DNA of 64,000 bases from a virus. Under the pieces are notes generated by a model, which had not been told where the DNA came from, did no database searches, and saw only the letters and a list, made by a program, of their open reading frames with translations. The DNA is taken from positions 17,571 through 81,570 of the IMG/VR virus record IMGVR_UViG_3300006735_000002; one strand, 5' to 3'. A program made the translations under genes and the position numbers. Positions 2,263 through 52,121 of this stretch are shown here, in pieces. The first letter of the stretch is position 1; the number at the start of each line of letters is the position of its first letter.

Positions 2263-2294
2263 TGTTACACTCACCCGCAACCACGGGTGAGTGT
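2263..2294 (+). promoter_or_regulatory. Extended -10-like motif overlapping an RBS-sequestering hairpin
   Basis: TGTTACACT at 2263-2271; perfect 11-bp stem ACACTCACCCG (2267-2277)/CGGGTGAGTGT (2284-2294) covering the GGTGAG SD of ATG 2297. Confidence 0.55.
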
Positions 2295-37733: not shown

Positions 37734-38120
37734 CTACAGGTTGACGCCGCACGCCAACGTGTGCGGCTTTCCGTTTGTGACGTTGAAGACCGCGAACTGG
37801 CTGGTCAGCAGCGGTCGGTTGTCTCCCACCACGAACGTCTCGAGCTCGTAGGGGTTGTACCGAACTGCCTGCTCCGTTCCGTCGAGCAGGATGAGGTGGG
37901 TGACCCACCCCTTGGCGTAGGCATGGACATGCTCCCTGCCCTCACGCCTCACGCGAGCACGGCCGGAAGGTTGCACCCTCCAGGTCACGTGCTTCAACAC
38001 GATGCGCTTGGCGTACCCAACCACCAGGGCATGCTGTCGCACACTCCATTCTCGGCGGCGCTGGTTGAAGTACACCTGCACCGGGCGCTCTCGGTCGAAG
38101 AGCTGGTGGGTACGCTTCAC
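37734..38120 (-). CDS. Conserved hypothetical phage protein
   Basis: VYFNQ...WSVR...GRARVRREGREHVHAY...VRYNPY pattern recalled from other phages. Confidence 0.7.
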   Translation of the reverse strand: MKRTHQLFDRERPVQVYFNQRRREWSVRQHALVVGYAKRIVLKHVTWRVQPSGRARVRREGREHVHAYAKGWVTHLILLDGTEQAVRYNPYELETFVVGDNRPLLTSQFAVFNVTNGKPHTLACGVNL

Positions 38121-38287
38121 TCTGTCTCCACCGCTGCCGTCACAGACGGCTGTTCTGGGTCCGCGACCTCGCCTCCCTGCGACTCGACCTCGTCGACAAG
38201 TTCTTCGACGAAGGCGTGCAGCAGGTCGAGCAGCTGCGAGGGGTCGATGTTGGTGCGAATCTTGAAGCTAAGTGTGTGGGTATCCAT
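38117..38287 (-). CDS. Small hypothetical protein
   Basis: GAGGAG RBS before MDTHTL. Confidence 0.55.
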   Translation of the reverse strand: MDTHTLSFKIRTNIDPSQLLDLLHAFVEELVDEVESQGGEVADPEQPSVTAAVETE

Positions 38288-38288
38288 G

Positions 38289-38879
38289 TCAGTTCTCCTC
38301 GATGACGATGACGTCGTTGCTGTTGACCCAGATGGTTTCTTCCTGCTCGTTCTCGACGTTGATGCCGAGACGCTGGCCCGGCTTGTACCGGTCCTGGCCT
38401 GTCCAGAAGACGTGGCCGCACTTGTTGATGTTGCGCTGACTCTTGGGGCCAGCACGCACCACGCGGATGAAGTCTCCGCGCTGAACCTGCCGGTCCGTCT
38501 CCTCGACCAGGTGGGCGAGACTCTCAGCCCGCCGAGGCGCCGGCGCCGGGGGCGTGGGCTGCGCCGCGCTCTGCGGTGCAGTGCCGAACGAGTAGCCAGC
38601 AACGGCTCCGCAGTCTCGGCAGTAATCGAATCCGACCACGCCGTCGTATCCGAAGTGGGTGGTGTTGCCGCAGCTTGTGCAGCTCATGGTGGCGGTGGGG
38701 GTCGAGGGGGTCATGGTGCTCTCCTTGGTGAGGTAGTCCTTCGGGATGAACATCCGCGAAGGCTTGATGGTGTGGTGCTGTCCTGCCTGGTAGGCGAGAC
38801 GCATCACGTCGTCGGGCTGGCCGGAGTGGACCCGGCCATCGTGGTCAGTCCACTGCAGGCGTGTCTTCACACCTTCCAT
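38289..38879 (-). CDS. Zinc-ribbon-containing hypothetical protein
   Basis: CTSCG...CRDCG; alternative start at MTPSTP. Confidence 0.55.
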   Translation of the reverse strand: MEGVKTRLQWTDHDGRVHSGQPDDVMRLAYQAGQHHTIKPSRMFIPKDYLTKESTMTPSTPTATMSCTSCGNTTHFGYDGVVGFDYCRDCGAVAGYSFGTAPQSAAQPTPPAPAPRRAESLAHLVEETDRQVQRGDFIRVVRAGPKSQRNINKCGHVFWTGQDRYKPGQRLGINVENEQEETIWVNSNDVIVIEEN

Positions 38880-39457
38880 TGCTTTGCCTTCGACGTACAG
38901 TCGCCTTCGTAGGTGTATGTGGCTTCGCACAGGTACACGGTGCCGACATCCGGCACGTACTTGGCCGTCTCCGTGAACGTCTCCAGCACGGCGGTGTAGC
39001 CGCTCTCCCAGACCCAGTGGTCGTCCTCGTGCCGGAGCGTGAACTTGACCTGCGCCTTGGGAAGCTCACGCGTTCCCTCGGTCTCCGTCCACCGCACCGG
39101 GTCGAGTCGTTCCCACGTCTCGTCGTTGAAGTCGAGCCACTCTTCTCCGTTGTCGTCCGTCGAGTGGATGACCGAGTCGAGGTAGTTGAACTCCGCCTCG
39201 TTCTCCCAGTGCTCAGCGCACGGGATGTTGAACAGCTCGGGCAGGCCCGCGGCCTTGACCAAGGTGTCCATGTCGTGGAACTTCGCAGTGCTCGACTTCT
39301 CAGCGAGTTCGACCTTGTGCTTTTCCACGAGTCTGCGGAGGTCCTTGATGGCTTCATCCTTTGTCGGAGCCCACGCCTGGCATGGGTACTCCGTCGACCG
39401 GGCATGCCAGCCCGCCCTCCGGTTGGTGTCTTCCATCTTCTTCAGTTTCATCTTCAT
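38867..39457 (-). CDS. Protein with HicB-like N-terminal domain
   Basis: GWHARSTEYPCQAWAPTKDEAIKDL resembles the HicB partial RNase H fold; AGGAG RBS. Confidence 0.55.
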   Translation of the reverse strand: MKMKLKKMEDTNRRAGWHARSTEYPCQAWAPTKDEAIKDLRRLVEKHKVELAEKSSTAKFHDMDTLVKAAGLPELFNIPCAEHWENEAEFNYLDSVIHSTDDNGEEWLDFNDETWERLDPVRWTETEGTRELPKAQVKFTLRHEDDHWVWESGYTAVLETFTETAKYVPDVGTVYLCEATYTYEGDCTSKAKQWKV

Positions 39458-39478
39458 GGTTCTCTCCTGGTTGTGGTT

Positions 39479-39849
39479 GGTGTGAGGCACCTGTCAGGCC
39501 GTGCCCCCCTGCGCCTCGATCTCGTCTTCGTAGAAGCCGTCACGCCACGGGGCGTCCGCTCCATGCAAGGTGACCATGGGCCAACAGCCCGTCTCTCCAA
39601 GGTCGTGGCCCTGCACAATGGCCATCTGCCCCACGTAGGAATCTTCGTCGGACTTGATGACCTTCACCCGGCTGCCCACTGGGAAGACTCGCTGGGCTTC
39701 GATCAGCCATGCAGCCTTCTTGGTAGAAGACTCTTGCAGGATTTCGTGAGGGGCACCTGCACGATTGACAGTAGACCAGCAGAATGATGGCATCGTTGCT
39801 CCAAGGTGTGGGGTGTGGGGCACCTGTCAGGCCGTGCCCCCCTGCGCCT
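39479..39849. repeat. About 38-bp direct repeat flanking a single gene
   Basis: GGCACCTGTCAGGCCGTGCCCCCCTGCGCCT identical at 39486-39516 and 39819-39849, preceded by GGTGTG(A/G); internal GGCAC/GTGCC hairpin. Confidence 0.9.
39494..39793 (-). CDS. Hypothetical protein (possible SH3/KOW-like barrel)
   Basis: FPVGSRVKVI...YVGQMAIV; GGAG RBS; stop codon lies inside the repeat. Confidence 0.6.
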   Translation of the reverse strand: MPSFCWSTVNRAGAPHEILQESSTKKAAWLIEAQRVFPVGSRVKVIKSDEDSYVGQMAIVQGHDLGETGCWPMVTLHGADAPWRDGFYEDEIEAQGGTA

Positions 39850-39857
39850 TGTGCCTC

Positions 39858-41027
39858 TCAGGCAGAGACGAGCACGCGGTTCTCAACGCTGCGCACGATG
39901 CCGTCGAGGAGGACAGCGTTGGAGAACTTCTCCATTTCGTGCTGGAGAGAGAGGCTCTCCTCCTGCGCCACTCGGGTGATGCCATCAACGGCACCTGCCA
40001 GGGTGCCGTACGGGCTGCTGGTCTCGTCGCGCAAACCGCGCTCGAAGACGTTGGTCAGCACGCGGTCGGGCACCCGGGTCTTGCGCTTGGCGTTGACCTC
40101 GGTGATGAAGGTCTCGACCGGGCCCAGTGTGTTGTCCTCGATCTTGGCGTCGGGATCGAAGTCGATGCGGGTGTTGACCGACTGCTCGTAGAGGTCGAAG
40201 CCCTCACCCATACCGCGGCGGATGCCCGCCAACTGCTCGGGCAGGTGGTCGTTGACGCGCTGCATCATGTCGCCGACGTGGTTGTGACGCGACCGACCGT
40301 AGTCCTCCAGCGTGGCGGCGATGCCGTTGCTGCAGATCAACTTCCAGAGCTTGCCCCAGAACGACAGGCTGGCGTGCCCGGTCTCGCTGTTCCACATCTC
40401 GATCATCTTGATCGGCGTGCCCAGCTTGATGGGCTCGTCGGCGATGCGGACTCGCATGCGCTCTGTCGTGAGCTGGTACTCGATGACGTTGCGGTCGCCG
40501 CCGAAGTGGTCGACTGCCAGCGACAGTGCCTCGACGTGGGACAGTGGCGCGTACCCCTCGGTCACGACACCGTCGAGAACGGGCAGGCTCTCGCCGCGAC
40601 GGGAGCTCACTCGCCAGCGCAGCGTCTTGCTCACGCGCTGCGACCACATACGGAGCATGAGGTTGGTGGCCTCGAAGGCGCGTGCCTCCTGCCCACGCCA
40701 GTTGGCGGTGCTGTCGAGCTCGGCCGTCTGCTCGAGAATCTTACCGAGGCCGGAGATCTCGAGGTACTGGCTCAGCTGGCGGAAGGCGGACTTGGCCACC
40801 TTGACCTTGTCGTTGCCGAGTACGGCGACGGCACCACCGTCTTTGGCGGGGAAGAAGGCGAACGGCACAGCGTTCACCGGAATGAGGTAGTCGTGTCGAG
40901 CCTGCTTCTCGCTGATGACTGACTGCAGGTGCGCCACATCGGACAGGGTCATGCCCGCATCGTGGCCGCGCTTGAGGATGAGGCTGCTGGGCAGCAGGAT
41001 GTTGATGTTGGGATCGATGATGGTCAT
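39858..41027 (-). CDS. DUF932-family protein
   Basis: VVTEGYAPLSH, NSETGHASL, LICSNG, RHNHVG. Confidence 0.75.
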   Translation of the reverse strand: MTIIDPNINILLPSSLILKRGHDAGMTLSDVAHLQSVISEKQARHDYLIPVNAVPFAFFPAKDGGAVAVLGNDKVKVAKSAFRQLSQYLEISGLGKILEQTAELDSTANWRGQEARAFEATNLMLRMWSQRVSKTLRWRVSSRRGESLPVLDGVVTEGYAPLSHVEALSLAVDHFGGDRNVIEYQLTTERMRVRIADEPIKLGTPIKMIEMWNSETGHASLSFWGKLWKLICSNGIAATLEDYGRSRHNHVGDMMQRVNDHLPEQLAGIRRGMGEGFDLYEQSVNTRIDFDPDAKIEDNTLGPVETFITEVNAKRKTRVPDRVLTNVFERGLRDETSSPYGTLAGAVDGITRVAQEESLSLQHEMEKFSNAVLLDGIVRSVENRVLVSA

Positions 41028-41126
41028 GTCAGTTGCTCCGGTGGTTGTGCTTGCGGATGATGGCGTCCCGCAGGAACGGGTCGCCCAGGGTGTCGAGCCC
41101 GAGGGCCTTGCGGATGGCGGCGGTGT

Positions 41127-41330
41127 TCATGTTGCTCCTCCCTTGTTGATCTTGACCCAGCAGGCGAGCCAGACCTCGCCAGTCTCCGGGTCCTTGCGGG
41201 CGACGTGGCCGCCGCCTGCGTCGACCAGCTCAACCAGGTTGTCGGCGTCGAGGACCTGCTGGGCCTCGGGGTCGGTGACCTCGTGTCTCTCGAACGTGTC
41301 GAGGTCCTGTGCCATGAATGTCTCTCCCAT
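41127..41330 (-). CDS. Small hypothetical protein
   Basis: GAGGAG RBS before MGETFMAQ; GEVWLACWVKI. Confidence 0.5.
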   Translation of the reverse strand: MGETFMAQDLDTFERHEVTDPEAQQVLDADNLVELVDAGGGHVARKDPETGEVWLACWVKINKGGAT

Positions 41331-41338
41331 GTTGCTCC

Positions 41339-42184
41339 TCACTTTGCCGCTGCTGCGGCGGTGTCGTTGTTGATGCGGCGGACCTTGGAGGCAATCGCTC
41401 CATGGAAGGCCAGCCAGAAGGACGGCCGACGAGCCCCGCGCTCGTTGCCGTTGCACCCATGGCACTGCACACAGGTCAGTCCGTGGGCGTCTGCATTGCA
41501 CTCTCGACCGAGTGCGGCGAAGGCGGCGTCGTCTTCTGCGGAACCGCTCGATGCGAACCAGCGCCAGCCAGCAGCACGGGCACGCATCGCATCCGCCGGG
41601 CTGGATACCGAGGCCATGAAGTACTGTCCCCAGGTGGCAGCGTCGAGGCTGCGCCACGCTGCGGTGTAGCCGCTGTGACCCTTGGCTCCATGGAGGATGC
41701 TCTCCCACACATGGAGTGGAACAGCTGCGCCGTCACCGTCGTTGGTCAGGCGGATCTCCGCACCAGTGTAGAAGCCGTCAGGGACACCGACGACACCCCG
41801 CAGGAGCAGGCCCAGCGCTGCCTCCCAGGCGAACCCGAGACGATGCTTGTCGACATAGCAAGTGCCGAGACCATGTCGTGCCTTGCTGCGATGGACGCAG
41901 TCGTCAGGGCAGACTGCGTCGTCAAGTCCTGCGTCGTAGGCAGGACCCGGTGCGATGTCCTGCCGCATCACTGCGACCTGGATCATGTCTCCCGTCTTCA
42001 CGTTCTTGGATGAGGCGTTGTTGCACTGCGCCACGACCATGATGGGGTCGCCGGTGAGCAGCGAGTTGCCTGCCCACAACACAATGGTCGATGGCAGGTC
42101 GGCCACTCGGCGAACGCCGAGAACCTTCTTGACGTGCTGCTTCCAGGCGGAACGCCACTTGAGGTTGAGGAAGGATGCGGTCAT
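41339..42184 (-). CDS. Cys-rich Gp88/DUF7227-like phage protein (possible radical-SAM-related Fe-S protein)
   Basis: NVKTG, VCPDDC...CYV, IRLTNDGD, GYTAAW, MASV, C...TCVQCHGC, FHG. Confidence 0.65.
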   Translation of the reverse strand: MTASFLNLKWRSAWKQHVKKVLGVRRVADLPSTIVLWAGNSLLTGDPIMVVAQCNNASSKNVKTGDMIQVAVMRQDIAPGPAYDAGLDDAVCPDDCVHRSKARHGLGTCYVDKHRLGFAWEAALGLLLRGVVGVPDGFYTGAEIRLTNDGDGAAVPLHVWESILHGAKGHSGYTAAWRSLDAATWGQYFMASVSSPADAMRARAAGWRWFASSGSAEDDAAFAALGRECNADAHGLTCVQCHGCNGNERGARRPSFWLAFHGAIASKVRRINNDTAAAAAK

Positions 42185-42206
42185 GTATTGCTCCGTGTTG
42201 TGGCAC

Positions 42207-42235
42207 AGCGTATTGTGCTGTGCTGTTACTGTCAA
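42207..42235 (-). promoter_or_regulatory. Sigma70-type promoter
   Basis: TTGACA (42235-42230), 17-nt spacer, TACGCT (42212-42207), just upstream of the 42184 gene. Confidence 0.7.
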
Positions 42236-42570
42236 GGATGGATGATCGTCCAAGCCTGCCACACGGCGACATGCCGCATGGCTTCGCGCATCCCGTCGGC
42301 GGAGATGCACCATGCCTCGATGCCTCCATCGAGGTTCAGCGCCCCGCCCCTGCGCTTGAGCAGAGTCGAGACGTAGTACCGGCGCACGAACTGCCCCTCG
42401 TCGGGGAAGGTGTCCCCGGCGAACTCGCGGTCGTAGAACTCGACCAGGGGCTCGGCCTCCTCGTGGGTCTTGCCGTGGTTGAGGCCGTAGCGGTCGCCCT
42501 TGCGGACGAACCGCACACGCCAGGGCTGACCCGTCTCGTGGTCGATGAAGTCGTGGAGGGGGTCGGTCAT
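42232..42570 (-). CDS. Conserved hypothetical phage protein
   Basis: GDRYG...PLVEFYD...GQFVRRYYVSTL...LNLDGG. Confidence 0.7.
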   Translation of the reverse strand: MTDPLHDFIDHETGQPWRVRFVRKGDRYGLNHGKTHEEAEPLVEFYDREFAGDTFPDEGQFVRRYYVSTLLKRRGGALNLDGGIEAWCISADGMREAMRHVAVWQAWTIIHP

Positions 42571-42797
42571 GATGTCTCCTCGTTGGTGCAGGTGTCGATG
42601 CAGTCGCGCGGGACACCCGGGATGTCGGCCTCCAGGGCGACGCCAACAGGGGCGTTCCAGTCCCAGGACTTGACGTTCTCGTCCTTGGCGTTTCGCTTCG
42701 CGCAGTGAGGGCAGAGCTCACCGTCGCGCGCGAAGTAGCGAATGCGGCTGCCGGTCACACGGCAGTGGCCTCCGAGGTAGCGGGTAAAGGGGGTCAT
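42567..42797 (-). CDS. Small Cys-containing protein
   Basis: 76 aa, CPHC; GGAG RBS. Confidence 0.55.
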   Translation of the reverse strand: MTPFTRYLGGHCRVTGSRIRYFARDGELCPHCAKRNAKDENVKSWDWNAPVGVALEADIPGVPRDCIDTCTNEETS

Positions 42798-42809
42798 GAT
42801 GTTTCTCCA

Positions 42810-42918
42810 GAGTGAGCGCCGACGCAGGGAACCTGCGCCCCAAGGACCGTCCTTGGCTCAGACAACGAGGGCCCGGCAGCCGAAGCCGCCAGGCCCTCAC
42901 CCGTCGCACGAATCACTC
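42810..42918 (-). ncRNA. Structured intergenic RNA element
   Basis: 14-bp hairpin with cUUCGg loop, two more hairpins, enclosed by GAGTGA/TCACTC; wobbles valid on the minus strand. Confidence 0.55.
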
Positions 42919-42932
42919 AGCCTTGATGAACG

Positions 42933-43562
42933 TCATGCCTCACCTTTGCTGACCAAGGTCCAGAAGACCGCGGTGTTCTCTCCGATAGATTCCTTTCCCA
43001 TCACTGCGCGAGCGAGCTTTCGGTGCTCGGGGCCGAAGGGCTCGGGGAAACCGCGGAGGCAGCCCAGGAGGATCTCCCACTCCAAGGACAGTGCGATGTC
43101 CATCCTCGCCCACTCACAGCAGGCGAGGAGCTCGTCCACGGCGAGAAGCCAGTCATCCACTCGCTTCGTGTGCCAGTCTTCGTCCGGGTACTGGTTGACC
43201 AGCTCCTTCAGGTTGTAGTCGATGTCCTCATCATCGAACGGGTCGCGCGGAACATCGGAAGGAGCGTTGCCCTTCCGCATAGCCAGACCGGCGATGGCGG
43301 CTGCTTCCATGTCGTACTCCCGCTCGAGCTTCACGTGCTCGTCATACGCCTGCTGGAAGTCCTCGGGCGTGACTGCCACGCCCACATCAGGGAAGGCCTG
43401 CGCAGCCTCGGCCGCACGGAATCCTGGTCGAATGTGTACCAACTTGCCGCGGTACTCCCGCTTGACCACGACCCGCTGGGCGTAGTCGACGATGCTGCCC
43501 TCCCACTCCTCCATGACCGTGTTCCACGGAGGGAAGAAGGGGATGGTCTTGTCTCCCATCAC
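42933..43562 (-). CDS. Hypothetical protein
   Basis: 209 aa, GGAGGTG RBS. Confidence 0.65.
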   Translation of the reverse strand: MMGDKTIPFFPPWNTVMEEWEGSIVDYAQRVVVKREYRGKLVHIRPGFRAAEAAQAFPDVGVAVTPEDFQQAYDEHVKLEREYDMEAAAIAGLAMRKGNAPSDVPRDPFDDEDIDYNLKELVNQYPDEDWHTKRVDDWLLAVDELLACCEWARMDIALSLEWEILLGCLRGFPEPFGPEHRKLARAVMGKESIGENTAVFWTLVSKGEA

Positions 43563-43780
43563 TCACCTCCCAGGGACCACGTGGTCTGGAGAAAGGACAC
43601 CATGCGGTGCGCCGTCTTGGTCTCGTCGAACGTGACCTCCTCGCGCCCCGGCACCCCCGGTATGATGTTGTTGACTGTGATGTCGTTGCCGCTGGTGCGG
43701 ATCACGGTGCCGGTCACGTCGACCCCGTGGGATGCGAGGTAGAAACTCACGCGGCGGTCAAGGTAGAGGTGGGGCATCAT
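43559..43780 (-). CDS. Small hypothetical protein
   Basis: 73 aa, coupled at both ends. Confidence 0.6.
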   Translation of the reverse strand: MMPHLYLDRRVSFYLASHGVDVTGTVIRTSGNDITVNNIIPGVPGREEVTFDETKTAHRMVSFLQTTWSLGGE

Positions 43781-44040
43781 GCCTCACCTCCGTCGGTGAA
43801 GCAGCCATCCCACACGCGGGCGTGGTCTTCCTGGGCGTGGCGGTGAACCTCATCGACTATTTCCTCGAGCTTCACGAGGAAGGTAGTCAGGGAGATTTCG
43901 TCTGTGTCTCTGCTCCCCATGTACATCCGCTCCGCGAGGAGGAAGATGTCTCTCTTCACGGTACTCGCGATGTCCTGCTTCACGATGAGCCCGTACGAAC
44001 CTTTCATCAGTTCCTCGACGCGCTTTCTTTCACTACTCAT
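43777..44040 (-). CDS. Small hypothetical protein
   Basis: AGGAG RBS before MSSERK. Confidence 0.6.
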   Translation of the reverse strand: MSSERKRVEELMKGSYGLIVKQDIASTVKRDIFLLAERMYMGSRDTDEISLTTFLVKLEEIVDEVHRHAQEDHARVWDGCFTDGGEA

Positions 44041-44158
44041 GTCATGCTCCTGTTGTTGATGGCAGACACACTTGTCATGCCTGAGAATGTCAGTGCTACT
44101 GGCATTCTCAGCCACGCACGGCCCACTACCTTAGCAGTAGCGGGCCGTGGTGTGCCTT

Positions 44159-44314
44159 TCAGGTGGTGAGGGCGAGGACCGTGACGGTCCCCATGCCGGC
44201 GCCGATGAGCGCCAGTACCAGGGTGCCGACCCATCCGGTCGGCTGCTCGTCCCGGCCCACGCGGACCGGGATGCGATGGTCGGTGATCTGCTCGGTGTAG
44301 TCTTCGAGGTTCAT
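44159..44314 (-). CDS. Small C-terminally anchored membrane protein
   Basis: 51 aa MNLEDY...WVGTLVLALIGAGMGTVTVLALTT; GGAGG RBS; below the ORF-track cut-off. Confidence 0.55.
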   Translation of the reverse strand: MNLEDYTEQITDHRIPVRVGRDEQPTGWVGTLVLALIGAGMGTVTVLALTT

Positions 44315-44529
44315 GCCACACCTCCTGTGCTCATGATTGCGTCGTGGATCTTGTCGTTGACCAGAACGACGACCATCCTCTCTGTCTCGGCACCGGTCAT
44401 GCCGTGGGTCTTGGCGATGTCGCGCTTCTCTTCTGGGCCGGGGGCGACCTCCGCAGCTTCGATGCGGTCACTGACGGTGGCCATGACGGTGGCCAAGGCC
44501 ATTGCGGTTGCGTGAAAGTTCGATCCCAT
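44311..44529 (-). CDS. Small hypothetical protein
   Basis: AGGAGCAAC RBS. Confidence 0.55.
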   Translation of the reverse strand: MGSNFHATAMALATVMATVSDRIEAAEVAPGPEEKRDIAKTHGMTGAETERMVVVLVNDKIHDAIMSTGGVA

Positions 44530-44599
44530 GGTGTTGCTCCTGATGTGCCCCCGGAGGGGCGAGGGTCAGCGGGACAGTGCCCGCTTGAGGGTGGGTGCT

Positions 44600-45043
44600 T
44601 CAGCCGTGCTTGCTGAGGGCGTGGTCGCTCCAGAAGGCAGCAGCCTCGACAGCTTCCGAGGGCTTCATGCCCGAGTCCCACCACTCTCGGGGAGCGACAG
44701 TGGACCCGATGCTCCCGTAGGCGGTGAACACCTTGGGGTCATCGCCGGCGATGCCGATGACCACCATGTGGTCTGCCGGTCGGCACGGGCGGTTGATGAG
44801 GCGGCTCGGTCCGGGGCGGTTGCCCCGCTTCACGTACTCCACCTCTTCCTCGGGGACGGACTCGTCACCACAGGACGGACCGTACAGAGCCGACTGGAGC
44901 GTGCCGGCCAGCTCCTCGAGCGGGACGGCATCGACGAAGAATCCCTCCCGCACGCTCATCAGGATGTCGATGAGCTTGTGGTGTCTCTCGTCCAGCCCGT
45001 GGTCAGCGTGAAAGATTGGCGTGCCCTTGGGGGTAGCGGTCAT
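44600..45043 (-). CDS. Hypothetical phage protein
   Basis: 147 aa, ALYGP..GD...TAYG...APREWWD...FWSDHAL. Confidence 0.7.
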   Translation of the reverse strand: MTATPKGTPIFHADHGLDERHHKLIDILMSVREGFFVDAVPLEELAGTLQSALYGPSCGDESVPEEEVEYVKRGNRPGPSRLINRPCRPADHMVVIGIAGDDPKVFTAYGSIGSTVAPREWWDSGMKPSEAVEAAAFWSDHALSKHG

Positions 45044-45193
45044 GGTTCTCTCCGATGCAGGCTGAGTGAACGCACGACGAGCAGACCTGCGGACATGCAG
45101 GAGCCTGCTGCGCTCGCCGTGCGGGATGGTTGCTCAAGCGCATGAGGCTGCTCGACCCTGTCGGGGAGCGGCGTCACACCTTGGCGCGATTGC

Positions 45194-45327
45194 TGGGAGC
45201 GGAGGGCATCGAACCCTCTACCGTCAAGGTCTCGTGTCGAGGTGATCAGCCTCTCCACGGCAGCGTCCTCAGGTGATCAGCCCGTGAACATCTGCGCGAC
45301 CAACGGCCCTTACCAACCGGCGCTCCC
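45194..45327 (-). ncRNA. tRNA/tmRNA-like RNA with two CUGAUCA-capped hairpins
   Basis: Acceptor stem GGGAGCG/CGCTCCC plus A; T-arm GAGGG-TTCGATG-CCCTC; D-loop-like TTGGTAA; helix GCCGTTGGTC/GACCTTGACGGT leading to two hairpins with loop CTGATCA. Confidence 0.8.
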
Positions 45328-45435
45328 TCAGGATGAACCTGAGGCCCAATCAAGGCTCTCCTCTTGCGAGGTTGTAGGCGTGGAATCAGACGCCTCGTTA
45401 CTTGTATACCGCTGCCTTGACTCAGCGGTGAGTGG

Positions 45436-45660
45436 TCACGGGATGAGGTAGGAAACCTCAACCTCGTACAACCCGCTCCACTCTCCGAACGGGTCGATCA
45501 CTGCATCGCAGTGCTCGACCTCCGCCAGGAACACCTGGCCCTCATGGGTCACCGCGACGCGGAGACCCACTTCGATTGCTTTTCCGACGATGAAGATTGC
45601 GTCTTCATCGTCGGAGAAGTTCGCCTTACTCAAGGCGAACTGTCGCAGGGCGGGGGTCAT
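45436..45660 (-). CDS. Small hypothetical protein
   Basis: GGAGAG RBS before MTPALR. Confidence 0.55.
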   Translation of the reverse strand: MTPALRQFALSKANFSDDEDAIFIVGKAIEVGLRVAVTHEGQVFLAEVEHCDAVIDPFGEWSGLYEVEVSYLIP

Positions 45661-45859
45661 GTCTCTCTCCAATGCCGGAAGCAAGGAACCCACACACACC
45701 TCCGGCGGGGTGCATGTGGGCATGCCGTCAGGGTCGTGGCCTCTCGGCCACGGTGCCCCCGCACGAGGGGAAGCAGGGGGGCGATGCTCAACCCTGCCTC
45801 AACCCACGCCAGGGGCGCGATGCGATGCGGGCAACCTCACGGGTGCCCGCGGTGTGCCG

Positions 45860-45994
45860 CTACCAGAAGTAGCGACACACCTTGTCGAGCGCCACGCGGG
45901 CAGCCACAAGGGCCGCCCGGTACGCCAGGTTGATGCCCGGCCGCTCCTCCTCTCGTTCGAGGAGTTCGACCATGTGCCGGCCGATCACTGTCAT
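45860..45994 (-). CDS. Possible 44-aa protein
   Basis: MTVIGRHMVELLEREEERPGINLAYRAALVAARVALDKVCRYFW; weak RBS. Confidence 0.35.
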   Translation of the reverse strand: MTVIGRHMVELLEREEERPGINLAYRAALVAARVALDKVCRYFW

Positions 45995-46150
45995 CTCTAC
46001 GCTTTCCAAGTTCACCGGAACTCCTCGGCACACCGACATGTCATGCCGGTGTCAGGTATGCCGGTAAGTGTGTGACACTTCCGGCGGGTTGAGCACTCAA
46101 GCGTAGCGACACGTGGTGTGCCTCGGCCGCTTGAATGCGAAAGAAAAACA

Positions 46151-46436
46151 GAGGGTCATACGGGATAACCCTCGTTGAACCTGTCATATGCAAGTCGGAC
46201 AGGTTATGTCCGAATCACTGCTATGCCAGGTAGGAAGCCACCTCTCGCAGAATCCTCCCACGTTGGGGCGGATTCGAGGGTGGCTGCGCTTAAGAGAAAC
46301 CTAAAGGTAGGGGTAACTCCTACCCGCCCCCCTGATGGGGGGTAGATCCTCGCGCGCTTAGGAATCCTTTTACAAGTCACACATTTGATCATTCAGAAAT
46401 CTATCAGGTAGAACCTGAGTTAATCCGTATGACCTC
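46151..46436 (+). ncRNA. About 285-nt multi-branched structured RNA candidate, antisense to flanking genes
   Basis: Closing stem GGGTCATACGGGATAAC/GTTAATCCGTATGACCT; at least five internal hairpins; G-U pairs valid on + strand; visibly lower GC than its surroundings. Confidence 0.65.
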
Positions 46437-46575
46437 GTGCGACAGGAATCGTCATCCATCCTCGACCACGACGAGAACCCGCATGGGCGGGGCCTCGTCG
46501 TAGGCGACGACGTGCGGCAGAAGTGCTGATCTGCTGATTGTAGATTCAGCGCCTCTGCCGCTACGATTCGTAGAT

Positions 46576-46929
46576 TCAGTCGGGGCGTCGCTTGTCACCC
46601 CACGAGATCGCGCGCTGGGCGGCGTTCTTCGTGAAGTGGGTGCGCTTGCCGTTCATGGCTCCGCCCGGACCCTTGGGTCGAACGGCGGAGCCGCTGTACC
46701 GACCGTGGCTGGGCGTAGCGCCGCGCTGGCGACGCTGGCCTCGACGCTGGCCGCCGAAGTCGGACCAGCCATGGCCGGAGCCCCGCGTGGCAGGGTTGCC
46801 GTCCATGGTCCGGGTCCTGGCGACGTGTTCGAGCCACATGGACTCGGACTGTGCAAGGCGAGCCTCGCAGTAGTCGAGCATGCGGTCCAAGTCGGCGACG
46901 CAGTCGAGAGCGTCGTGGTTTTTGGGCAT
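46576..46929 (-). CDS. Basic Gly/Arg-rich hypothetical protein
   Basis: AAGGGA RBS before MPKNHD. Confidence 0.55.
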   Translation of the reverse strand: MPKNHDALDCVADLDRMLDYCEARLAQSESMWLEHVARTRTMDGNPATRGSGHGWSDFGGQRRGQRRQRGATPSHGRYSGSAVRPKGPGGAMNGKRTHFTKNAAQRAISWGDKRRPD

Positions 46930-47053
46930 GGCGGTCCCTTGGTTGATAGGCTGACGTGTTTCGACCCTCCATGGGTCATCGTCAGGGAGGCGGTACAGCC
47001 TCCGACACGTGGGGCGAGGCGACCCCCCGAGAGGGGCCGCCCCATGGCTGGAG

Positions 47054-48187
47054 TCAGCGAGCGGCGCGGGCAGTGGCTGCGATCGTGTCGGCGAGGTCAC
47101 CCTCACCGGCGTCACGCAGCGACCACTCGTGGTGCCGCCCGTCCTGGGCGATGCGGGCAGACTCGTCCATGTCACGGACCTTGCGGCCCGTGGCACGAGC
47201 GGCTGCCAGCCGGAACTTCGAGAGCGAGAGTGCGGCCACGCCGGAGTTGATCCGGTCGTCGTCCCATCCGTCCGCTTCGAGGACCGCAGCCGCAGCCGGG
47301 TCCCGAGCGGGGATGAGGACGAGCGGCTTCGCCGTAGCGGCGAGGCCATCGAAGGAGTCGGATGCCTGCGAAGGCAGGCCGACACCGAGGCGGACGAGGC
47401 AGCGTGCGATCTGCTCCGGGGTCACGAACGACTGGACCGCGTAGGTCTTGCCGCTCGGGACCACACCCATCTGAGTCGCGCCGAAAGCCTTGAGGTCCTT
47501 GATGGCCTCGTGCTTCTCCCGGCTGTCGCGGTAGAACACCGCGATGGCACGGGACGCACGGGTCACCGGGACCGCAAAGTCCAGGCGCTTGCCAGTGGGG
47601 CGGAGGACCGGGCAGGCAATGCCTTCGGCGTTGCGAACCGCGAGGTTCGCGACACCACCGGCCTGCTGCTCCAGATCGGCCTGACGACCGCCGGCACCGG
47701 TGGTGGTGCCGAAGATCATCAGGTTGGAGCGCGTAGCCCACGTCTTCACCTTGCCGAGGTCCTCGGTCGTGAAACCGAGCACGCTGGCGCAGAGCAGCCG
47801 GGGCCCGGCACCCTTGATCTTGCCGTCCTTCGTCTTGACGAATCGGACCTTGTCGTCGGTCGTGTCGACCGAGGCGTAGGTCGCCTCCATGGTCTGCACC
47901 ATGGCCTTGCCCATCTCCTCGGTCGCCACTCCGTCCGTCCCGACACCGACCTCCATGTCCTCCAGGTGGAGGGCGTAGCCGCCCACCGGAGCCGGGCTGT
48001 CGTTGACGGTCGGGTAGACGTAGGTCTCCGTCGTCGTCTCGCTCTCCTCCTCGGAATCCAGGCCGGTGGCCTGGAGCATGGTTGCGATGATCGCAGCCTT
48101 GTTCATCTTCATCGACACCTGGATGGACGGGTCCATCGCGGCGAGGTTGCAGAGGTCGGCCTTGGTCATTCCGTTGAGGTTGAGCAT
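47054..48187 (-). CDS. First early gene; N-terminal Rho-N/HeH-like domain
   Basis: LNGMTKADLCNLAA...KMNKAAIIATML; GGAG RBS before ATG 48187. Confidence 0.65.
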   Translation of the reverse strand: MLNLNGMTKADLCNLAAMDPSIQVSMKMNKAAIIATMLQATGLDSEEESETTTETYVYPTVNDSPAPVGGYALHLEDMEVGVGTDGVATEEMGKAMVQTMEATYASVDTTDDKVRFVKTKDGKIKGAGPRLLCASVLGFTTEDLGKVKTWATRSNLMIFGTTTGAGGRQADLEQQAGGVANLAVRNAEGIACPVLRPTGKRLDFAVPVTRASRAIAVFYRDSREKHEAIKDLKAFGATQMGVVPSGKTYAVQSFVTPEQIARCLVRLGVGLPSQASDSFDGLAATAKPLVLIPARDPAAAAVLEADGWDDDRINSGVAALSLSKFRLAAARATGRKVRDMDESARIAQDGRHHEWSLRDAGEGDLADTIAATARAAR

Positions 48188-48199
48188 AGTAGTCTCCAT

Positions 48200-49120
48200 G
48201 GCTTGCCGGATTCCGTACCGACTTCGCCCCATTCGTCGGACCACACGGTCCTCGGGTTAGGGGCACGGCTTGATGCTTCCGACGTTTCCATCGGTCGGCT
48301 CGCCACGAAGAAAGGCCCATGACTACAAGAGCCATGGGCCTTCCATACGTGGGTCCGTGGGACGGGCAAACCGTCCTCGCCATGCGTGCGTCGCCATGAG
48401 CGCACGTCTCCCCTTTTAACACGCTTTGTTCTTTCACGTGGGATCGGAGGGTACAACCGATGATGTATGCGCCGGATCCTCTCGGACTCGCCGACCATGC
48501 TCACGCATGGCACACGTGTTCCTCCCCTATCGCTCCCCATATGATCGGATCGATGCGATAGGCGTGCTGCGCGGTACCCTCACGGGCACCGTACGTGTGA
48601 CGCTTAGACTGTTTTCTCAGCCTTGACGATACAAACAGGCAACCCGCATAACGGACCCGTCACCAGGATCTCACCACGTTTGACCGTCCAACCGCGCGCC
48701 GTACCCGGACACACGCACCACGGGTAACAGCGCCGAAACGCCATATCCAAGGCACGCCCGATCCCGAGGCGCCGAAACGCACAAGGGGGGCACGATACGC
48801 GGCACTCAGGCCGCACGATCAAGAGATCGAATCGTCGCGTATTCGTGTTTCAAGGTACCGGCGGTGTCACACCCCTTCGCGGGGCCCATTCTCGGTACAC
48901 CATCAATATAACATGGTGGGCACACCACCCCCCTACGACGGACGGCACCCGACCCGACACAACACAACAGGGGGAAGGGGCGCGGGGCACGGCGGCCTGG
49001 AGGTGCGACCCCCCCACCACCAAAAAACTTTTGTAATGGGACCCAAAGTAGGGGGGCCCCTTTTCAATCGGACCCGATTTTCAAAAACAGGTGTGTTACA
49101 CTCGTGTGCGTGTTACAGGA
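48200..49120. other. Long non-coding divergent region, candidate genome terminus/origin
   Basis: No credible ORF, flanking genes diverge, homopolymer cluster near 49010-49088, repeated GCGCCGAAACGC, several hairpins. Confidence 0.5.
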
Positions 49121-49126
49121 GCGCTT

Positions 49127-49777
49127 ATGCCTAAAACGATTCGCCTCAGTCTCAAGTTGACGGACGCTCAGCTTATGTCCCTCAGCAGTGTCAAGGCCGA
49201 CCTTCGAAACGACTCGAAGGTTCAGGCATTGGGCGGTGACGTGACCGACCATACGGCCCTTAGGTACATCCTTTTCGAGGCCCTGGACGGAGTTCGTTAC
49301 TCACGTGCGGCGGAGGGTCTGGAGTCGCTGGCGCGGCGGGATGCGCTGCTCGGCACACCTGGGCACGGTAAGCTGGAGCCTGAAGAGGTCCCTGCGGCGC
49401 CGCCTGAGGTCGAGGTCGAGGAAGAAGAGGTCGAGGAGGACATCTTGCCGGTCCGGGTGTACGACCGGCCGATTGGTTGGGAGTTCTACGACCATGGCGG
49501 CTGGGAGTTTCCGCAGACGCAAGATGAGATGCATTCATACTACGAGGCGGCGGGTTGGATCCGATGCGCGGCTCAGCTCGAGGACCGGATGCTCGAGCTC
49601 TACTGGCACCCCGACGGTTCGAAGCATGACCTACCTGCCTACGGCGGCAAGGACAGCTACAATCGAGGCATCGACGTGCAGCGTTCGCCCGACGTGGGTC
49701 TGGCCCACATGGTCCCAGAAGACTGGGACGAGCCGAGGGGAGCTACGGGCGACATCGGCATGTGGTCCCCGGGATGA
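49127..49777 (+). CDS. Hypothetical protein, possible ribbon-helix-helix N-terminus
   Basis: AGGAG RBS; MPKTIRLSLKLTDAQL; TGTTACACT upstream. Confidence 0.6.
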   Translation: MPKTIRLSLKLTDAQLMSLSSVKADLRNDSKVQALGGDVTDHTALRYILFEALDGVRYSRAAEGLESLARRDALLGTPGHGKLEPEEVPAAPPEVEVEEEEVEEDILPVRVYDRPIGWEFYDHGGWEFPQTQDEMHSYYEAAGWIRCAAQLEDRMLELYWHPDGSKHDLPAYGGKDSYNRGIDVQRSPDVGLAHMVPEDWDEPRGATGDIGMWSPG

Positions 49778-50094
49778 TGGAGGTTGCGATGACAGGGTTT
49801 GCTGACCTTGGTGAGGTGATGGCGGCTCGTGCGGGTGACGACGTTCCCGTGGAGCGTGCTCCCGCGCTGGTCCCGGCGCCTATTGCTCAGTCAACACCTG
49901 GCCACTGGGCCAGTTATCTGTGGCAGACGTCTCGCGGAACGTGGCAGGACGTTGCTGACGCCCTCGACATGTCGTTCAGCACGGTCTATCGGCGGGCGCA
50001 GGACTACTGCTGGGCGCAGGACCTGCCCTGGCCGCTCGAGAAGCGCGTTGAAGCACGCCGTGTGGTCCGAGAGGTCATCCGAGGCGTCACTTGA
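49774..50094 (+). CDS. HTH protein
   Basis: TWQDVADALDMSFSTVYRRA. Confidence 0.65.
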   Translation: MMEVAMTGFADLGEVMAARAGDDVPVERAPALVPAPIAQSTPGHWASYLWQTSRGTWQDVADALDMSFSTVYRRAQDYCWAQDLPWPLEKRVEARRVVREVIRGVT

Positions 50095-50507
50095 GGGTCG
50101 TTTTCTACGGTGGCCGGCACTTCAACGACGTGCATGGGCTGTATGAGGTCTTCTACAAGCTCTTTCGGGGGCGCGGAATGGCCGAAATGTACCTGACGGA
50201 CGACCCAGGGGCGCCAGAGTTGCTCGCGCGTTTCGGTCGGGAGCAGGATTTGGACGTTCGGGTCGTTCCTGCGCCCTGGTTGCTGTTTGGCAACCGCGCA
50301 GAGGGGTCTCGGCGCCGCGTTTTGCTGGAATCTGCCCCAGAAATGGTCGTTTTGCTGCCCGGCGGGCGGTCAGTGGCCCACATGGCCGACATTTCGTCGG
50401 CTGCGGGCCTCCCGGTGTGGGATTTGCGCGAGCTCGAGTACATTATCGCGGGTGATGGGCGGCAAATCGGCGAACGGGACGTCGATCAAGACGAGCTGCT
50501 CTTCTAA
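50091..50507 (+). CDS. SLOG-superfamily (YspA/DUF2493-like) protein, degenerate
   Basis: RVVFYGGRHFND ... VVLLPGGRSVAHM..AAGLPV. Confidence 0.7.
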   Translation: MRVVFYGGRHFNDVHGLYEVFYKLFRGRGMAEMYLTDDPGAPELLARFGREQDLDVRVVPAPWLLFGNRAEGSRRRVLLESAPEMVVLLPGGRSVAHMADISSAAGLPVWDLRELEYIIAGDGRQIGERDVDQDELLF

Positions 50508-51046
50508 CGCGGCATCTCCTCCTGGTACTCCTGGTACTCGCCGTCATCTTGCGGCATCTCCGCCAGGTACTCACCGTCATCTTCGTAATCTTCGTCATCG
50601 AGAAGAACCGGCGGGTTGTCGAGCGCCCGCCTATACTCCATGCTTGAGATTTCTCCGCCAGAAAAAGGTAGCCCTTCCTCGTCAGACGGATCTTCTTCGG
50701 CCATGTCTGCCATTCCGTCGATAAAACTTTCGCCCGGAGACGGGTTGACGCGGTCTTCGTAATCGTCGTGGTCTTTGACCTGTTCATCGGCCCGTCGAAA
50801 AAATGCTTCCGTCGCGTCAGTAAACCTCTCGCTGGTCGTTACCGCCGGAGGCTGCACGGCTTTCTTGGGGCCGCGCATCTCCAGGTTGTAGCCGTACGGG
50901 GTCTCCGTAGTCGTAGACTTTGCGCCACTCTTGTACGTGGTCGTGCCTGTAGGCAGCCTCGACGGTCCGAGCGTGAACTCCTGCGCCATCTCGTCCTTGA
51001 GATTGGCGTAAGCCTGTCCGGGCACGTATTTGTTGAAGTCGTCCAT
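50504..51046 (-). CDS. Acidic hypothetical protein
   Basis: 180 aa with a repeated DDGEY...EMP tail. Confidence 0.6.
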   Translation of the reverse strand: MDDFNKYVPGQAYANLKDEMAQEFTLGPSRLPTGTTTYKSGAKSTTTETPYGYNLEMRGPKKAVQPPAVTTSERFTDATEAFFRRADEQVKDHDDYEDRVNPSPGESFIDGMADMAEEDPSDEEGLPFSGGEISSMEYRRALDNPPVLLDDEDYEDDGEYLAEMPQDDGEYQEYQEEMPR

Positions 51047-51417
51047 CAGGTGATGAGGATTCGCGTCTGCAGTGTCGTTGACGGACCAGTGCTGCCGGAG
51101 TTGCCCGCGGCGTTGGCGCCGATGTACAGAATCCCGACGTCGATGGTCAGCCCGAGGGGAATCGTGTACATCCTCGTGCTGTTTCCGGGCGCGTAGAAGA
51201 TGAAGTGCGCGGGGTTTGTCCCGCTGGTCTTACCCGAGGTCGCATCCCAGATACGGAGGTATGCGTCGCCCGACCCTGCGCTGTTGTCCAGGTAGACGGC
51301 GAAGATGGTAGTCGCACCGTCTTTGCCCAGAATCGGTGCAGTGCCGCCGACGACGTTGGCGTCGGAGATTTCGTTTCCGGCGAGATTGCCCGGAAGTACG
51401 CGATTAACGAGGCTCAT
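51046..51417 (-). CDS. Virion structural protein, paralog 1
   Basis: 123 aa, VYLDNS...YLRIWDA...P...GLT pattern shared with the neighbour. Confidence 0.65.
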   Translation of the reverse strand: MSLVNRVLPGNLAGNEISDANVVGGTAPILGKDGATTIFAVYLDNSAGSGDAYLRIWDATSGKTSGTNPAHFIFYAPGNSTRMYTIPLGLTIDVGILYIGANAAGNSGSTGPSTTLQTRILIT

Positions 51418-51420
51418 AGT

Positions 51421-51792
51421 TCAGCTCCCCACGAGGAGGGTGGCAGCGGGTTGGCTGGGCCCCACGTTGTTAGTGTCGTCTTCGTCTTGCACCGCACGGA
51501 TGGTCACGCCTGTAGTGAACGACAGGCCATCTGCGATAATGACGGTTGTGCTGACAGACTGCTCAACCCGAATCACCAAGTTCGGCAGGCTGTTCGCGGC
51601 GGTAGCCGACGCAGCGTTGTAGAACTTGAAGAAGGTGTTGTGGCCAGAGTTCTGGGAGTTGTCCAGAACCATCGAGTGCAGTGAGATCGCGCCGTCAAAA
51701 ATGTTGGCGGTGCCTACCTCGTCGGTGTCGGTTTCCTTGGCAATGATGTCAGGGAAGTCAGTCGTGCCGAGGGGCGTAGTAGTAAGAGCCAT
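51421..51792 (-). CDS. Virion structural protein, paralog 2
   Basis: 123 aa, MVLDNS...FFKFYNA...P...GLS. Confidence 0.65.
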   Translation of the reverse strand: MALTTTPLGTTDFPDIIAKETDTDEVGTANIFDGAISLHSMVLDNSQNSGHNTFFKFYNAASATAANSLPNLVIRVEQSVSTTVIIADGLSFTTGVTIRAVQDEDDTNNVGPSQPAATLLVGS

Positions 51793-51818
51793 TTACGGCC
51801 TCCTTCAGGCGCAGCCTA

Positions 51819-52121
51819 TCAGCCGCCAGTTGCCTTTGTCACGGTCTTCTTGTTGCTCCAGGTAGCCTGGCAAGACCAGTAGCGAGCCTTGTGCTTGGGG
51901 CCCGGGTTGTCACAGTTGTGTCGTGCCCGGAAGTTCTTGCGCCGCTTGGGGTCGTCGCGCTTGATCTCCATGTTGGCATCACCGAAGGTCACCTTCACGA
52001 CGTTGCCGTTCGGCTTCTTCACGAACACGACGAACTTCTTCTTCCCGTAGGAAGGCTCGCCCTTTCGGATGCGGCGCGGCTTGTTGAGCGCCGGAGTCTT
52101 CTTTTTCTTCTTCTCGGCCAA
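51819..52121 (-). CDS. Highly basic conserved phage protein
   Basis: KKFVVFVK...VTFGD...RRKNFRARHNC...ARYWSC. Confidence 0.7.
   Translation of the reverse strand: MAEKKKKKTPALNKPRRIRKGEPSYGKKKFVVFVKKPNGNVVKVTFGDANMEIKRDDPKRRKNFRARHNCDNPGPKHKARYWSCQATWSNKKTVTKATGG

Follow-up and report, generated by a model that had tools for sequence, protein, structure and literature searches.

The stretch of viral DNA analyzed here (hereafter the window) is 64,000 nucleotides long and comes from the IMG/VR virus record IMGVR_UViG_3300006735_000002. Its minus strand carries, at 45327-45194, a 134-nt unit with the shape of a tRNA, and a second structured RNA, here called module B, lies directly beside it. 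Very probably the unit is real and forms the tRNA-shaped, non-decoding domain of a family of two-domain phage RNAs that Rfam does not contain; the whole RNA would measure about 240 nt, from 45431 to 45191 on the minus strand. The contigs place the bipartite RNA in dozens of uncultured phages. The source record is an 81,570-bp virus with direct terminal repeats that was rated complete; the window corresponds to its bases 17571-81570 and has a G+C content of about 61%. A non-decoding tRNA-shaped phage RNA is made testable here by three properties, i.e., a near-invariant partner core, a recurrent loop on varying stems, and two domain orders. The overall explanation, which blends the two-domain RNA with a mechanism for its loops, stands in our estimate at about an even chance of being right.

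The original prediction, made from the sequence of the window, had described a tRNA-like RNA whose anticodon arm is replaced by two hairpins with the same loop, and each of the pieces that it named was found at its place on the minus strand:

45327-45194, minus strand: tRNA-shaped unit of 134 nt (from the letters and the fold)
45327-45321 with 45201-45195, minus strand: acceptor stem GGGAGCG/CGCUCCC, perfect over 7 bp
45194, minus strand: discriminator A
45193-45191, minus strand: GCA instead of CCA, 3' of the discriminator (G-C at this place in 17 of the 18 family members listed)
45218-45202, minus strand: T-arm GAGGG-UUCGAUG-CCCUC
45320-45308, minus strand: D region with GGUUGGUAAGG
45307-45298 with 45231-45220, minus strand: basal helix GCCGUUGGUC/GACCUUGACGGU
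45260-45295, minus strand: hairpin 1, with the 7-nt loop CUGAUCA at 45280-45274 (from the fold and the listing of TGATCA sites)
45233-45259, minus strand: hairpin 2, with the 7-nt loop CUGAUCA at 45249-45243 (from the fold and the listing of TGATCA sites)

The D region is nearly stemless, with two possible pairs at most, and the basal helix, which has 10 pairs and is interrupted, leads into a three-way junction, with a single linking A before the T-arm. The unconstrained minimum-free-energy fold was identical to this drawn structure, with -63.3 kcal/mol and a z-score of -2.54 (4 of 200 shuffles were equally good), and the plus-strand fold of the same stretch gave -53.0 kcal/mol and a z-score of -1.55. 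We counted six G-U pairs in the fold, so that it suits the minus strand only, in agreement with the strand originally assigned. The features of a canonical tRNA that are present are the 7-bp acceptor, the 5-bp T stem, and a T loop of the U-U-C-R-A type; neither ARAGORN nor the Rfam model detected a canonical cloverleaf, in which a 5-bp anticodon stem carries an anticodon loop of 7 nt. No gene for a tRNA or a transfer-messenger RNA (tmRNA) was called by ARAGORN, whether in the window or over the full 81.6 kb of the genome, and Rfam 15 gave 0 matches at the gathering score and none on the 134-nt unit at E ≤ 10, RF00005 included. The unit cannot decode codons, and the view that it is a tRNA mimic lacking this ability and lying outside the described families was upheld by these searches.

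The 134-nt unit had been seen as a lone element; its extent was confirmed, but it proved to be one half of a bipartite RNA. The alignment of module B (A3) contains 22 sequences from other phages, none of the window's type, and the covariance model R2 was built from these 22 sequences with that of the window excluded. R2 matched the window at 45431-45326 on the minus strand with 40.2 bits and an E value of about 6e-10, and this was its only match in the 64 kb. The match ends at the second base of the acceptor stem (45326), i.e., it overlaps the tRNA shape by two bases. The parts of module B in the window are the following:

45428-45423 with 45414-45409, minus strand: stem CCGCUG/CAGCGG, invariant in the three lineages of reversed order
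45421-45415, minus strand: 5' strand of helix P1, GUCAAGG, contained in the 8-nt loop of the CCGCUG/CAGCGG stem
45399-45371, minus strand: module B core AACGA-GGCGUC-UGAUU-CCACGCC-UACAAC (from the pattern scan and R2)
45371-45360, minus strand: small hairpin CCUC-GCAA-GAGG with a GNRA-type loop (the family alignment has a hairpin there, of varying sequence)
45359-45356, minus strand: AGAG junction (GAGAG conserved in alignment A3)
45355-45349, minus strand: 3' strand of P1, CCUUGAU, followed by GGG (GGG(G) conserved in alignment A3)
45342-45328, minus strand: spacer hairpin UCAGG-UUCAU-CCUGA, directly adjoining the tRNA-shaped unit (L259 and L216 also have a hairpin there, with a different sequence)

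In the window and in the lineages L259 and L216/L258, the order is module B, spacer hairpin, and tRNA shape, which reverses the common order, where the tRNA shape comes first; module B is thus tethered beside the acceptor end of the tRNA shape in both. The other reversed-order lineages scored 37.4 bits (L259) and 37.1 bits (L216) with R2. In the window, 45421-45415 pairs with 45355-45349 to form the 7 pairs of P1, and both strands of this helix change together among the reversed lineages, from GUCAAGG/CCUUGAU in the window to GGCAUAGG/CCUAUGUU in L259 and GCACGAG/CUCGUGU in L216. Helix P2 of the common form (GUAGG with CCUAC) is absent from the window, which has CAGCGG instead, paired with the upstream CCGCUG; with the 5' strand of P1 lying in the loop of this stem, the arrangement is either a pseudoknot or an alternative fold.

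Module B adjoins tRNA-shaped RNAs in about 30 IMG/VR contigs. The common form reads, in order, tRNA shape, A-G-C, P1 5' strand, GUAGG, small hairpin, YGAAC-AACGA, GGCGUC-variable loop-CCACGCC, UACAAYC, small hairpin, GAGAG, P1 3' strand, and GGGG. On the 22-sequence alignment, the named structure had 81.5% of its cells paired, compared with 69.7% in shuffles, and in the closing helix P1 both sides change in 7 of 7 pairs. The covariation score was 0.302 versus 0.111 in shuffles; none of 500 shuffles reached 0.302, and the slid controls stayed at or below 0.114. Module B is a real structured RNA, because P1 covaries on both sides, well above shuffles and slid controls. P2 and the core hairpin show hardly any variation, which neither supports nor contradicts them, and they compete for two C residues. 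The core, of about 30 nt, hardly changes among phages whose G+C content in the matched stretch spans roughly 42% to 68%, and this points to a conserved cell component or ligand as its target.

The relatives came from scans of different reach. A scan for CTGATCACC occurring twice returned at least 119 stretches, and 74 when two loops and a T-loop were requested; these matches are mostly due to chance, both counts being close to a rough chance estimate. A hairpin filter over 197 loci, with both CTGATCA sites in loops closed by at least 4 pairs, was passed by four unrelated contigs (L144, L145, L161, and L184), in all of which the hairpins are framed by a T-arm and an acceptor stem. A second common sequence, GGCGUC-loop-CCACGCC-UAC, stood beside the tRNA shape, upstream in the window and downstream in L144 and L184. 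The pattern for this GGCGUC-type core found 49 IMG/VR stretches, and the fuller AACGA-type prefix with the conserved downstream parts was present in 31 listed loci, the window included; the remaining stretches look, from their sequence, like chance matches in coding DNA. The scan of a genome collection for the core gave 6 stretches, all 6 in metagenome-assembled genomes, and a metagenome scan for the window's variant added 6 further stretches, among them the third lineage, L259. With blastn, which is weak for short motifs with a variable loop, module B had no match in 50,697 cultured-phage records or in E. coli genomes. Rfam, applied to eight module B loci, returned tRNA matches only and no family for module B. 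Literature searches by CUGAUCA, by module B strings, and by topic found no description of this RNA; the family may be listed by serial number in a 2023 report that collects 8,495 candidates for structured RNAs in IMG/VR, a part of which are tRNA-like (PMC10690425).

The detector used for the tRNA-shaped partners had three requirements: an acceptor in which 6 or more of the 7 positions pair, a T stem of 5 bp, and a 7-mer resembling a T loop. A tRNA shape ended 24-32 nt before the core in 15 of the 31 listed loci and followed the core in 2, and several of the remaining loci have variant T loops outside the detector's rule. The partners range from 77 to about 200 nt. Some members (L144 and L244) retain a complete D arm together with an anticodon-like arm, their insert being placed in the variable region, and in other members, which are window-like, the insert replaces the anticodon loop. 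The 17 members with G-C instead of C-C after the discriminator include the window and L259, where nothing conserved follows.

Further forms were observed around the same elements. In the G+C-rich loci L211, L220, L228, and L254 (e.g., L228:2653-2761), the core stands behind another conserved leader, GGAGAGCGUCUCGCGGC...GUGUUCCCACGUU; ahead of the core, where a tRNA shape would normally stand, the detector recognized none, R2 gave 13-23 bits, and this type may be a third architecture on the same core. In L231:7319-7426 and L251:1852-1964 (R2 about 25 bits), the core directly abuts the 3' end of a tRNA-like gene of near-normal size, whose anticodon region reads CCUAG-AUGG-CUAGG. L145 (plus strand, about 13990-14130) and L161 (minus strand, about 3230-3440) have tRNA shapes with two or three CUGAUCA-loop hairpins, and in the contig DNA searched with R2 neither showed a module B match; L161 has in addition a T-arm-like hairpin just upstream of its tRNA shape. 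A second recurrent loop type was seen in L144 and L239, where a 5-bp stem is closed by the identical 7-nt loop CUAACUA, and L244 has CUACUA.

The loops were assessed on the 15 tRNA shapes found via module B alone, as hairpins of at least 4 pairs with a 7-nt loop YYGAUCM. Such a loop was present in 7 of the 15, on unrelated stems: L216 (two loops), L199, L200, L252, L245, L213, and L259; L199, L200, and L252 are related, so that the seven positives represent five lineages. Shuffled sequences gave a mean of 0.0145 of 15 with such a loop and a maximum of 1 in 2000 trials. In the inserts of 18 members, the most enriched 4-mers were AUCA (z-score 6.0), UGAU (4.6), and GAUC (4.2); CUAG reached 2.0, and the other 14 palindromic 4-mers were at or below expectation. 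Other hairpins of the family display ACUAGU, UCUAGA, UAAUUA, or AUUAAU. Among three related RNAs, one has UCUAGA as its second loop and the other two have ACUAGU, a change of both flanks that leaves the palindrome intact. Since the motif recurs on unrelated stems far above shuffles, the loop is a selected feature and not the product of decay. Self-complementarity fits most loops. Where a member has two different palindromes, each could pair only with its own copy on another molecule, and pairing of the two inside one molecule is excluded. In silico, the nested-model dimer had -139.2 kcal/mol compared with 2 × -63.3 kcal/mol, and the loop-loop duplex -5.2 kcal/mol; these modeled energies give no evidence of dimerization.

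Other roles for the loops were tried and set aside. Mimicry of the anti-Shine-Dalgarno sequence by CUGAUCACCUC, which we take to resemble the 16S rRNA 3' end, does not hold, as ACCUC is not kept after the loop in other members. Stop codons in the loops (UGA, UAG, UAA) suit most of them and fail for CCGAUCA and CAGAUCA, and the hairpin loop of module B can pair with the GAUC loops in the window but not consistently across members.

The window's RNA is also present in other DNA. The tRNA-shaped unit lies in the 392-nt gap (45044-45435) between two minus-strand open reading frames (ORFs), 45436-45723 and 44600-45043, and the proteins of these ORFs led to one near-identical phage and one distant relative. 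An identical copy of the RNA is carried by a second complete virus record, IMGVR_UViG_3300025168_000054; the third, more distant phage has a flanking protein that is 53% identical but lacks the RNA. In the first two genomes, the RNA and both flanking ORFs form a 1,125-bp island of 98.2% identity, the best conserved block, and the DNA around it is 80-90% identical or unalignable. The gap itself showed 0 differences between them. All 20 of the listed sequencing runs containing the stretch were DNA runs of marine or seawater metagenomes, from 12 studies, and no RNA run was among those listed. In contigs of four marine runs, no base difference was listed inside the 134-nt unit. A full-length contig of the run X6 had 3 unplaced differences within 45044-45460, and a partial contig of the same run, which resembles the L216-type relative, had 1-nt deletions at 45385 and 45388, inside the module B core.

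We propose that the RNA would be transcribed from the minus strand together with early genes. The promoter scan found no promoter-like site in 44900-45800, and co-transcription with the flanking genes is therefore likely; in L201, one promoter-like site was found upstream of the RNA and one after module B, a weak signal (2 versus 0.6 expected). The tRNA-shaped domain would retain what tRNA-processing enzymes read, i.e., the acceptor stem, the T-arm, and the elbow, and host RNase P and the 3' tRNA-processing nuclease could cut at this unit. Such cutting would yield a stable small RNA and give module B a defined 3' end, as in MALAT1/mascRNA. The two self-complementary loops would then act as specific contact points, most likely either by pairing with the identical loop of another molecule or through binding of a symmetric host factor. 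This last step, self-association through the loops or binding of a symmetric factor, is a tentative proposal that we hold at clearly less than even confidence. If the loops do join molecules, the RNA would be a small, tractable addition to the few known natural RNA-only assemblies. A bolder version, in which the RNA is an RNA-only machine whose module B acts on or holds the G-C-A terminus while the palindromic GAUC/CUAG loops join copies into a symmetric dimer or assembly, seems quite unlikely; if true, phages would have, on a tRNA scaffold, a small equivalent of the self-assembling RNAs ROOL and GOLLD. No consistently encoded neighbor protein was found, the commonest neighbor cluster being common to 4 of 36 loci. 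With no phage protein linked to the RNA, it could be studied in vitro without growing the phage or its host.

Several observations weigh against the reading of a two-domain RNA with functional loops. The folding energy of the 134-nt unit is only modestly better than chance; the case relies instead on how perfect the acceptor and T-arm are, on the context of the family, and on the recurrence of the loop. The three-way junction of the window RNA has no covariation support, as all copies found are identical. The local rate of change is low (6 differences per 1 kb), and thus the 0 differences over 392 nt fit constraint but are not decisive, being no proof alone. The single-sequence model R1 recognized the near-identical phage only, and the tRNA-shaped domains are too diverse to align. 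With regard to the loops, 3 of the 18 sequences in the 4-mer test had been found via the loop pattern, L217 and L221 are devoid of any GAUC or CUAG, and CUGAUCC, CCGAUCA, and CAGAUCA keep just a 4-nt palindrome. The restriction to GAUC, CUAG, and UUAA cores suggests sequence-specific recognition over generic self-pairing.

Other explanations were weighed on the same data. The tRNA shape could be a processing signal only, which recruits RNase P and trims module B, with hairpins that have no role of their own. The MALAT1-mascRNA pair is a precedent for a tRNA-shaped processing unit, and the contact between tRNA shape and module B in both domain orders and the likely co-transcription agree with such a role; nevertheless, a bare handle needs no large insert, whereas the inserts are kept with a loop motif far above chance, and the CUGAUCA hairpins of L145 and L161 occur with no module B match in the contig DNA searched, which leaves this explanation unlikely. 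The original prediction had offered a choice between a kissing-loop module and a decoy for anticodon nucleases or other tRNA-targeting defenses, where the two loops would mimic the anticodon loop of tRNA-Ile(GAU) and soak up the nuclease. Phage tRNAs are known to counter anticodon-nuclease defenses, and the 7-nt loops, with U at the place of U33 and GAU at 34-36 on a tRNA-like scaffold, are what a decoy would have; moreover, GAU is kept in all 11 distinct family loops listed. However, a decoy ought to reproduce its target, yet A37 of tRNA-Ile is replaced by C in every one of these loops, and one loop variant has C in the place of U33. The palindromes of sister RNAs, CUAG or UUAA within large loops, do not resemble an isoleucine anticodon, and no defense or counter-defense gene is linked to the RNA, the commonest neighbor protein being common to only 4 of 36 loci. 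Because of the C conserved after GAU and the CUAG/UUAA palindromes of the sister RNAs, the decoy branch is weakened to a rather improbable one; the loops fit self-pairing or a dimeric binder better, and the kissing-loop branch would be the one to retain.

It is very unlikely that the unit is a decaying tRNA gene, or one interrupted by an intron or a small mobile insert. The full D arm and anticodon-like arm beside the insert in L144 and L244 would agree with such an origin, as would L227, which scores 46 bits on the Rfam tRNA model. In the window, no anticodon loop can be restored, as the long helix runs straight into the junction, and ARAGORN calls nothing with introns allowed; furthermore, the acceptor and T-arm are perfect and free of differences between the two genomes, with none inside the unit across marine samples, and the loop motif of the insert is conserved on varying stems. 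Equally hard to credit is a role at the DNA level, where the TGATCA palindromes would be sites for a dimeric DNA protein (in packaging, in methylation, or as an operator) and the fold of the RNA a by-product. The loop cores are classic 4-6-bp DNA palindromes, and the packaging site of phage P1 uses TGATCA/G repeats, but in the window TGATCA is not enriched (13 found versus 13.7 expected) and the shared 12-mer occurs only at these two places. The motif invariably occupies a hairpin loop and is preceded on the tRNA strand by an additional pyrimidine, all within a tRNA-shaped fold that contains the six G-U pairs. Least probable of all, with almost no credence on our part, is a tmRNA in minimal or degenerate form. 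In its acceptor stem and T-arm, its D region lacking a true stem, and the long helix that stands where an anticodon stem would be, the window RNA does resemble the tRNA-like domain of tmRNA. In contrast, pair 3-70 of the window RNA is G-C and not the G-U alanine identity pair of tmRNA, the RNA is 134 nt long, and no tag frame with the usual ending and no pseudoknot ring were indicated, as the ARAGORN tmRNA search and the Rfam tmRNA models were negative. A tmRNA-like tag frame was also looked for after the GCA, and none was convincing. These results agree with the early dismissal of a tmRNA, and the two-domain RNA with contact loops is the reading that we retain.

Non-decoding phage RNAs with a tRNA shape go back to the T4 species 1 RNA and, to our knowledge, have never been explained. 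The T4 RNA (rnaC; 139 nt), annotated as "small, stable RNA" in AF158101, is the closest concept to the window RNA and no relative of it. Both are phage RNAs of similar size, with a canonical T-arm, paired ends, and, in the computed fold, long hairpins replacing the decoding arm. Nonetheless, there is no sequence or model similarity, R1 and R2 matching nothing in the T4 tRNA region (L262), and rnaC is devoid of GAUC loops and module B and lies inside a tRNA gene cluster, whereas the window phage has no tRNA genes. In mascRNA/MALAT1, a non-decoding tRNA shape likewise abuts another RNA, whose end would be defined by the RNase P cut. The mascRNA is eukaryotic, of about 60 nt, and has no inserted display hairpins, unlike the 134-nt window RNA with its inserted hairpins, where processing is proposed. 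The bacterial Y RNA-like YrlA is also non-coding and consists of a tRNA-like module joined to another conserved module. The ends of YrlA form the Ro-binding stem and its tRNA-like part is internal, whereas the ends of the window RNA form the acceptor stem; moreover, it has no Rfam match, and TROVE/Rsr (PF05731) and RtcB (PF01139) were not found in the genome by searches whose controls responded. Finally, the self-complementary loops of the window RNA could join identical molecules, as does the HIV-1 dimerization loop and as in ROOL, GOLLD, and OLE, which the accessible part of PMC12286853 describes as homo-oligomeric natural RNAs. Compared with ROOL and GOLLD, the window RNA is far smaller, its palindromes span only 4-6 nt, and its self-assembly is a proposal.

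The surroundings of the RNA gave some additional observations. The two flanking ORFs belong to no Pfam family, and PHROG gave one weak match, for one ORF only. Compared with the near relative G002 (L261), the early region at 38000-52000 of the window is mosaic, and only short blocks align between otherwise close phages. In run X6, the loose ends at 45370 and 45415 have letters that resemble the L216-type relative of module B; if this reading is true, two family members of different phages share one marine sample. Farther away, one open frame of 5,099 codons, whose third-position G+C is coding-like, runs along the plus strand of the window at 2291-17590; no PHROG family was matched by a 2,000-residue piece of this frame (8291-14290). 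Around the RNA, Rfam gave weak matches only at 45579-45619, a strong and near-perfect hairpin of about 15 pairs inside the 95-codon ORF 45436-45723; they were to microRNA models and are surely due to chance.

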